The notes under the pieces are model-generated. The model was not told where the DNA came from. It saw nothing but the letters and a program-made list of their open reading frames with translations, and did not search any database. Positions 1,016 to 1,204 of a stretch of 6,136 bases of DNA are shown here, one piece after another (position 1 is the first letter of the stretch; each line of letters opens with the position of its first letter). The stretch comes from a virus. Lineage: Duplodnaviria; Heunggongvirae; Uroviricota; Caudoviricetes. The position numbers and the translations under genes were made by a program. The DNA is taken from IMG/VR virus record IMGVR_UViG_2778261249_000001, positions 1-6,136 of that record, one strand, 5' to 3'.

Positions 1016-1204
1016 TTAGTTAAGTAGCGTAAATGTGTAATCGTCATCGTGTAGTACTTCGTCGTGCACATAAATAAATCCGCCTTCATGTGTAATGTAC
1101 AGATCGCCTAAATCATCTCGCTCAGGCTCAATATGACGCTGGCAGAATGGGCAATACTGCGCATGTTTAGATGGTTCACTCACGCTATCACCTCTCACTT
1201 CCAA
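1016..1204 (-). CDS. Hypothetical small protein with a single CPFC motif plus downstream His residues (possible zinc-binding), 55-62 aa
   Basis: ORF-track ORF. The frame has no ATG: the maximal ORF starts at TTG 1204-1202, and there is an internal GTG at 1183-1181 preceded by GAGAGGTGA (better RBS context, giving 55 aa). Lies immediately downstream of the tR2-like terminator. Sequence ...HAQYCPFCQRHIEPERDDLGDLYITHEGGFIYVHDEVLHDDDYTFTLLN. Confidence 0.45.
   Translation of the reverse strand: MEVRGDSVSEPSKHAQYCPFCQRHIEPERDDLGDLYITHEGGFIYVHDEVLHDDDYTFTLLN

Follow-up and report, generated by a model that had tools for sequence, protein, structure and literature searches.

A GTG-started gene for a small acidic protein with a zinc-type signature follows ninA/tR2 in a lambda-like phage

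The window, that is the whole stretch of 6,136 nt of DNA analysed here, comes from a lambda-like phage and spans its immunity and replication genes and the early part of the nin region, in reverse orientation, with the rightward early operon on the minus strand. Its best phage matches are mosaic relatives such as vB_EcoP-720R6, Sf101 and mEp043, which have the replication genes in common with it and in which the small ORF considered here is absent. The genes and sites at the locus, in the order in which the early operon is read, are as follows.

6070 to 6136, plus strand: 5′ end of the gene for antiterminator N (MDAQTRRRERRAEKQAQWKAAN...), read from the sequence
5898 to 5912, plus strand: nutL boxB
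about 5035 to 5688, plus strand: gene for a LexA-family repressor
4702 to 4917, minus strand: cro-like gene
4662 to 4693, minus strand: lambda-type nutR, with boxA CGCTCTTA and boxB GCCCTGAAAAAGGGC, found by exact pattern match
4289 to 4582, minus strand: cII
3257 to 4117, minus strand: O
1269 to 3149, minus strand: Toprim/DnaB-like primase-helicase of 626 aa, the last replication gene (Pfam Toprim_2, AAA_25 and DnaB_C; PHROG 239)
1188 to 1268, minus strand: ninA, MTIYITELITGAIYTVALFYWIGSER, 26 codons plus TGA at 1190-1188, recognised by similarity to annotated ninA
1211 to 1239, minus strand: tR2 allele inside ninA, a 10-bp hairpin (1239-1215) and a T6 run (1216-1211), from a terminator scan
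1016 to 1204, minus strand: ORF from TTG 1204, 62 codons with the TAA stop at 1018-1016, from the ORF list
1184 to 1204, minus strand: the seven codons of this ORF ahead of GTG 1183, from TTG 1204 and including GTG 1198, out of frame with the 3′ end of ninA, which they overlap
1016 to 1183, minus strand: coding sequence of a 55-aa protein, MSEPSKHAQYCPFCQRHIEPERDDLGDLYITHEGGFIYVHDEVLHDDDYTFTLLN, from GTG 1183-1181 to TAA 1018-1016, from the ORF list and PGAP
668 to 991, minus strand: gene for a 107-aa protein (PHROG 15705, uncharacterised), downstream of the 55-aa gene

In Sf101, the corresponding position carries an annotated anti-termination protein N, and the nutR pattern had no match in 200 shuffles. 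The O gene contains, at 3678-3763, four copies of an iteron-like repeat (TGTCACC-N5-GGTGACA) at a spacing of 20-24 nt, which presumably constitute the replication origin, by analogy with lambda. Between O and the primase-helicase gene, a 35-codon ORF (3146-3253, minus strand) has a full-length match (E = 4e-26) to the uncharacterised PHROG 21848. The segment 4262-4345 (plus strand), which is antisense to cII at its 3′ end, has 97.6% identity with lambda 38597-38680 and contains a strong terminator at 4313-4340. We take this segment to be the oop RNA region; Rfam gave no match anywhere in the window, this segment included. Shortly past the repressor gene, at 5719-5740, a symmetric hairpin is flanked by a T-run on either side and has a terminator score on each strand.

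The ATG of ninA (1268) comes directly after the TAA of the primase-helicase gene (1271-1269). The first 32 nt of ninA (window 1268-1237, the block ATGACCATCTACATCACTGAG) are found downstream of ren, P or dnaB-type genes in 374 phage records, that of lambda among them, and the block aligns with lambda, Lahn2, Sf101 and HK446. At this place an ORF is annotated as ninA with an internal tR2 in Lahn2 and as NinA in Sf101, and the lambda ninA, MTIYITELITGLLVIAGLFIWGRGKS, located identically, also has 26 codons. The hairpin begins 29 nt after the ninA ATG, its RNA fold in context has an energy of -28.6 kcal/mol (z = -3.29), and it aligns column for column with both the canonical lambda tR2 and the tR2 annotated in Lahn2. 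In lambda, tR2 is located ~30 bp past the NinA start codon (Li et al. 2015, PMC4824070). The two marks of the lambdoid element, a short ORF that opens with this block where ren or the last replication gene stops, and a G+C-rich hairpin with a T-run ~30 nt after the ATG, are both found here and, as judged from the alignments, the element upstream of the 55-aa gene is a classical lambdoid ninA/tR2. The likeness to lambda extends to the surroundings, as the next gene begins at or a few nt from the ninA stop and a lambda-type N and nutR lie upstream. The stem is, however, of the HK446/HK97 type (GGGGCTA/TAGCCCC), whereas that of lambda is GGCCTGC/GCAGGCC; the architecture is unchanged, and at two of the aligned pairs both partners differ. 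The ninA ORF, a hydrophobic mini-ORF, is conserved in six E. coli copies, and both stem alleles preserve its length as well as the Leu-Phe-x-Trp that the T-run encodes.

The original prediction had read this upstream region as a tR2-like terminator alone, with the ORF immediately behind it. The terminator was recognised correctly, and its T6 run does end within a few bases of the ORF, 7 nt ahead of TTG 1204 (28 nt ahead of GTG 1183), but the 26-codon ninA was missed, and it is ninA, with the terminator inside it, that the ORF follows. The ninA stop (TGA 1190-1188) is 4 nt upstream of GTG 1183, and the 55-aa ORF therefore takes the slot held by ninB in lambda. The junctions differ: lambda and Sf101 have an ATGA in which the stop of ninA and the start of ninB overlap, and in Lahn2 and HK446 ninA overlaps the next ORF, whereas in the window the GTG-started ORF begins 4 nt past the stop.

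As had been predicted, no ATG is present in frame within 1016-1204 on the minus strand, and the translation contains no internal Met. Of the three in-frame start candidates, TTG 1204, GTG 1198 and GTG 1183, the prediction had offered the first and the third and overlooked GTG 1198. The sequence that it had pointed out upstream of GTG 1183, GAGAGGTGA, is indeed there; the Shine-Dalgarno (SD) sequence is GAGGTGAT at 1187-1194 (minus strand), with its GAGG core 7 nt upstream of the GTG. Scored as the duplex energy between the 20 nt upstream of each start and the 3′ end of 16S rRNA, GTG 1183 has -13.1 kcal/mol, TTG 1204 -2.4 and GTG 1198 -3.9. At the same GTG the energy is -12.7 kcal/mol in a divergent E. 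coli allele (L018) and -12.1 in Enterobacter-type copies. The GTG is kept in six E. coli copies, 4 nt past the ninA stop in each, and in the divergent alleles L018, L020 and L033 TTG 1204 has become TTA and GTG 1198 has become ACG, with GTG 1183 remaining. The 55-aa form is called by PGAP in every annotated genome examined and the exact 55-aa sequence is present on at least 100 contigs. On SD strength, conservation and public gene calls, initiation at GTG 1183, not at TTG 1204, is well supported, and the seven codons at 1184-1204 are probably not translated as part of this protein.

A protein of 62 (or 60) aa, begun at TTG 1204 or GTG 1198, would agree with the frame being open from 1204 and with the PHROG 36993 profile, which among the sources is the only one to use 62 positions and which matches residues 1-62 of the query, so that at least one phage annotation used the TTG. 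We nevertheless give this longer form little probability, as both of its starts are without an SD and neither codon survives in the divergent alleles that retain the downstream GTG. In addition, TTG 1204 lies inside ninA, just past the terminator T-run, the 62-aa sequence was not found in a collection of 15 billion proteins, and distant homologues begin with an ATG only 5-13 residues ahead of their YCPxC motif. Initiation at GTG 1183 is also consistent with the Enterobacter-type homologues on two IMG/VR contigs (L034 and L035, ~2990-3165), which are 76-78% identical and in which the frame opens just 4 codons upstream of the GTG. Because these homologues keep the GTG and an SD (GAGAGAGGTG) with no ninA/tR2 ahead, the non-ATG start is, in these comparisons, a stable trait of this gene lineage, and the adjacency of a terminator belongs to this genomic slot and not to the gene family.

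The 55-aa frame is a genuine protein-coding gene under purifying selection, and the first gene past ninA/tR2, where the nin region begins. PGAP gives the identical CDS, as WP_016246164.1, 'hypothetical protein [Enterobacteriaceae]'. Comparison with the divergent, 82%-identical E. coli allele yields 16.7 synonymous and 13.3 non-synonymous differences, for a dS of 0.88, a dN of 0.11 and a dN/dS of 0.125, with 7, 3 and 20 differences at codon positions 1, 2 and 3, respectively. This distribution over codon positions, together with the dN/dS of 0.125, makes the ORF more than a chance frame, and for the copy in Cronobacter dN/dS is 0.08. Lack of conservation of the frame in homologues, which had been named in advance as a ground for rejecting the gene, is not what these ratios reveal. 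That the ORF is short, ATG-less, positioned right behind a terminator and without a Pfam or NCBIfam family would all be expected of a chance open frame in the spacer between tR2 and the nin genes, or of a non-coding RNA element. Such an origin is, however, extremely improbable given dN/dS values of 0.08-0.125 with saturating synonymous change, the strong SD ahead of GTG 1183, protein-level homologues in Vibrio, Aeromonas, Cronobacter and marine phages that keep the putative metal ligands, and the empty Rfam result; on comparative grounds the substitution pattern effectively refutes it. At present, the 55-aa gene is an ordinary hypothetical phage gene.

The gene is present in 13 of 5,426 complete E. 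coli genomes and was not found in plasmids. In the E. coli prophages, the cassette of ninA/tR2 plus ORF occurs after at least three unrelated replication modules, encoding a primase-helicase, a DnaB-type helicase, or a DnaC-type ATPase plus a small protein, and is followed by differing genes. Homologues are located in a nin region in Cronobacter, after RdgC in a bat-gut siphovirus, at a large terminase/portal junction, between portal and head genes in Aeromonas prophages and in the early region of a marine phage. The gene for the 107-aa PHROG 15705 protein often accompanies the 55-aa gene in E. coli prophages; there is no conserved partner across the family, and when the neighbours at 13 loci were compared by all-against-all BLAST, none emerged beyond lambdoid synteny.

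Decayed copies also exist. In three genomes a 4-nt deletion (GAGTGAGTGAA to GAGTGAA) removes the start; in E. coli X14-3 (L002, 2697-2720), and as the same allele in T2 and CP61_Sichuan, the deletion is at the GAGTGAGTGAA slippage site and the remaining frame is intact. In two of the three cases, PGAP instead annotates a 'DUF7301 family protein', the start of which falls within the 3′ end of the inactivated ORF. In E. coli YZ22PE165 (L019, 1518-1685) there are three changes relative to the window, all non-synonymous (A8T, C11F and L53P) and none synonymous, and this copy, having lost the proposed zinc ligand C11, is probably inactivated. Since decayed copies exist and the gene is rare in E. 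coli, it appears to be dispensable, with a benefit that is possibly conditional.

A scan for promoter-like sites between tR2 and the 55-aa ORF found none. The gene would then be transcribed from the early rightward promoter, with no promoter of its own, and only RNA polymerase modified by N at nutR would read through tR2 and reach it, making the 55-aa protein a delayed-early product. In lambda, genes past tR2 need N-modified polymerase. We infer the same N dependence for the 55-aa gene, since a lambda N and a perfect lambda nutR are present and no promoter-like site was detected between tR2 and the ORF. At the level of translation, the ninA stop 4 nt upstream makes reinitiation at GTG 1183 possible, and ribosomes that end ninA may restart there, as at the lambda ninA-ninB ATGA overlap; from this spacing, translational coupling of the 55-aa gene to ninA is probable. 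For the window, folding predicts a stem in which the SD is masked by the 5′ end of ninA; there, translation of ninA would raise the probability that the SD is unpaired from 0.19 to 0.39, but this is not reproduced in the L018 allele, in which the value changes from 0.35 to 0.29.

The profile search that the original prediction had recommended placed the full-length query in PHROG 36993, the only PHROG match (positions 1-62 of 62, E = 2.3e-44, 150.7 bits); Pfam and NCBIfam contain no family that matches the 55-aa protein. PHROG 36993 and WP_016246164.1 represent the same family, and neither resource lists any function or domain. With the single sequence as query, a word-indexed search returned 4 clusters, an exhaustive profile search of 1.84 billion representatives returned 24 clusters at 50% identity, and a re-seeded search 99 clusters of similar length at 90% identity. 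The members are unnamed phage or prophage proteins, nearly all of 45-60 aa, from Escherichia, Enterobacter, Cronobacter, Plesiomonas, Aeromonas, Vibrio and marine or gut viral contigs. A pattern scan of species-representative genomes based on a narrow alignment gave a single, partial match; the taxonomic range given here is that of the profile searches and of the search for the exact sequence. One further protein from the profile search, a 414-aa repeat protein (P0024), was judged spurious. A search of the literature on the accession numbers found no mention of them.

Two short segments of the gene, recognised by their conservation, encode the residues that define the family.

1142 to 1153, minus strand: CPFC codons (C11-P-F-C14), the zinc knuckle with the first pair of putative ligands
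1049 to 1066, minus strand: H40-D-E-V-L-H45 codons, the proposed second pair of ligands, followed by the acidic tail DDDY

The prediction had noted one CxxC motif, several His residues and an acidic tail, all of which are present (CPFC at 1153-1142; tail HDDDY), and among the Cys and His residues conservation is confined to C11, C14, H40 and H45. Within an alignment of 100 family members, C11 and C14 are invariant (100 of 100), H40 and H45 are each conserved in 99%, D41 in 96%, Y10 in 97%, P12 in 94%, G35 in 90%, I18 in 89% and R16 in 88%; H7, H17 and H32 are not conserved. The family signature is Y-C-P-x-C-x-R-x-I ... G-x-I-Y-V-H-D-D-V-x-H-D-D-D-Y. The spacer between the Cys and His pairs has 25 residues in the window protein, ~18 in a Vibrio phage homologue and more in a small number of members. 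A second beta hairpin is predicted for this spacer, and the mean pLDDT of the AlphaFold model is 79. Over the 100 members, the sub-threshold Pfam matches are to zinc-knuckle or zinc-ribbon families only. Most likely, to judge by this conservation, C11, C14, H40 and H45 bind one zinc ion that holds together a small, beta-rich fold.

Several established families were considered and set aside. The spacings C-x2-C and H-x4-H fit a classical C2H2 finger (zf-C2H2 and relatives), but the 25-residue variable spacer does not, and no match is above threshold (zf-C2H2_DHX34 is a sub-threshold match in 4 of the 100 members). In a Cys4 zinc ribbon there would be a second Cys pair, whereas here there is a single CxxC and the second pair is His/His; matches to Zn_ribbon and L33 are sub-threshold and cover the first knuckle only. 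No structural neighbour of the 55-aa protein was found, and a profile search of the PDB aligned nothing but the CPFC knuckle, with ribosomal L44e and L33 and at E values no better than 0.1. NinF, a small Cys-containing nin-region protein, is of similar size and from the same genomic neighbourhood, but profile comparison by hhalign gave a probability of 3% and the two are unrelated. Identity with Ren or NinA, which the original prediction did not recognise in the protein, can likewise be dismissed, as ninA is the separate ORF directly upstream (1268 to 1188) and PHROG 36993 is the sole PHROG match. One homologue, P0030, carries the JGI name sarcosine oxidase delta subunit (SoxD). The name appears to be an automatic misannotation: the 25 listed of the 62 families with sub-threshold Pfam matches do not include SoxD, and the PDB profile search contained no SoxD chain at E up to 10.

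As a whole, the account of a GTG-started gene under selection, with a signature of its own and a ninA/tR2 context, for which N dependence, coupling to ninA and zinc binding are proposed, is likely to be right. With regard to function, the 55-aa protein resembles classical C2H2 and Ros/MucR fingers in having an aromatic residue before C-x2-C in a beta hairpin, an H-x4-H pair and a presumed Cys2His2 ligand set. It differs from them, and is not a member, in having an extra beta hairpin in the 25-residue spacer, in being strongly acidic and in matching no HMM above threshold. The spacer between the Cys and His pairs is 12 residues in classical fingers and 9 in Ros. These similarities of ligands and spacing, the position next to replication and regulatory genes in lambdoid phages, and the fusion of one homologue to a LexA-type winged-helix domain would suit a small regulator of transcription or replication that touches DNA or RNA in the manner of Ros/MucR or C2H2 proteins. 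We consider a nucleic-acid-binding finger of this kind unlikely, as the net charge is ~-9 over 55 aa, with a family median of -9, and R16 is the only conserved basic residue, the spacer is long and of variable length, the zf-C2H2 and Ros/MucR HMMs stay below threshold and, in other phages, the gene is located among structural genes. In the fusion protein itself (P0061, 123 aa; L021, 5001-5372, a contig of Logan SRR3577079), the zinc module occupies residues 1-55 and the winged-helix domain has a Pfam E of 9e-14; it is encoded in a phage early region near RecT on a single contig and may be either a real fusion or the result of a local deletion. It is a weak hint that links the family to DNA-binding regulators or transcription factors rather than to a host enzyme.

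A minimal metal-dependent enzyme, such as an HNH/His-Me-type nuclease or a small hydrolase with H40-D41 and the acidic cluster as its active site, would make sense of the strong conservation of H40, D41 and H45 (96-99%) and of the D/E run that follows, and a small mobile gene that lies between terminase and portal often encodes an HNH nuclease. Against this, there is no match to an HNH or other nuclease HMM and no structural neighbour, the order of the motifs is unlike that of HNH (the GG stands ahead of the HD, and an Asn/His helix is missing), and a protein of 45-55 aa in which two Cys and two His serve a structural metal has little left for catalysis. Catalysis seems very unlikely, the protein being too small for most enzymes.

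Our own proposal is that the 55-aa protein may bind another protein, of the host or of the phage, as a small factor that modulates or inhibits its target stoichiometrically. This protein-binding role, as opposed to DNA binding or catalysis, is favoured tentatively, at rather less than even confidence, because the protein is strongly acidic and has one conserved basic residue, and because it is encoded by a stand-alone gene in unrelated phage modules. YacG, a gyrase inhibitor, is a small acidic zinc protein with four Cys ligands that inhibits by binding a protein. The 55-aa protein is YacG-like in style, being stand-alone, of ~55-65 aa, with one putative structural zinc site followed by an acidic C-terminal tail that contains an aromatic residue; this is an analogy only, as no similarity to YacG in sequence or fold was detected, and YacG is not among the 25 listed of the 62 families with sub-threshold Pfam matches. 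A bolder version, which we consider doubtful, is that the protein is the founding member of a family of phage mini-proteins in which a Cys2His2 site displays an acidic surface that could mimic nucleic acid or plug a host DNA-binding enzyme or immunity protein, and that acts as an anti-defence or host-takeover factor moving between modules as a stand-alone cassette. The PADLOC models of anti-phage defence gave no match at E up to 1.

The regulatory context of the 55-aa gene is textbook lambda, and the protein family is catalogued (PHROG 36993, WP_016246164.1) but uncharacterised. Lambda-like nin regions contain many small uncharacterised genes, and one of these can now be given a start codon and a family signature, together with evidence that it is under selection and a hypothesis for a metal site. 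The local map is also corrected, with the terminator inside ninA and a GTG-started gene where lambda has ninB, and therefore offers what may be a compact natural case in which translation of a terminator-containing mini-ORF feeds the next gene. If the 55-aa protein blocks a host enzyme or a defence system, it would be a very small and easily synthesised inhibitor, and this would explain the movement of the cassette between unrelated modules.
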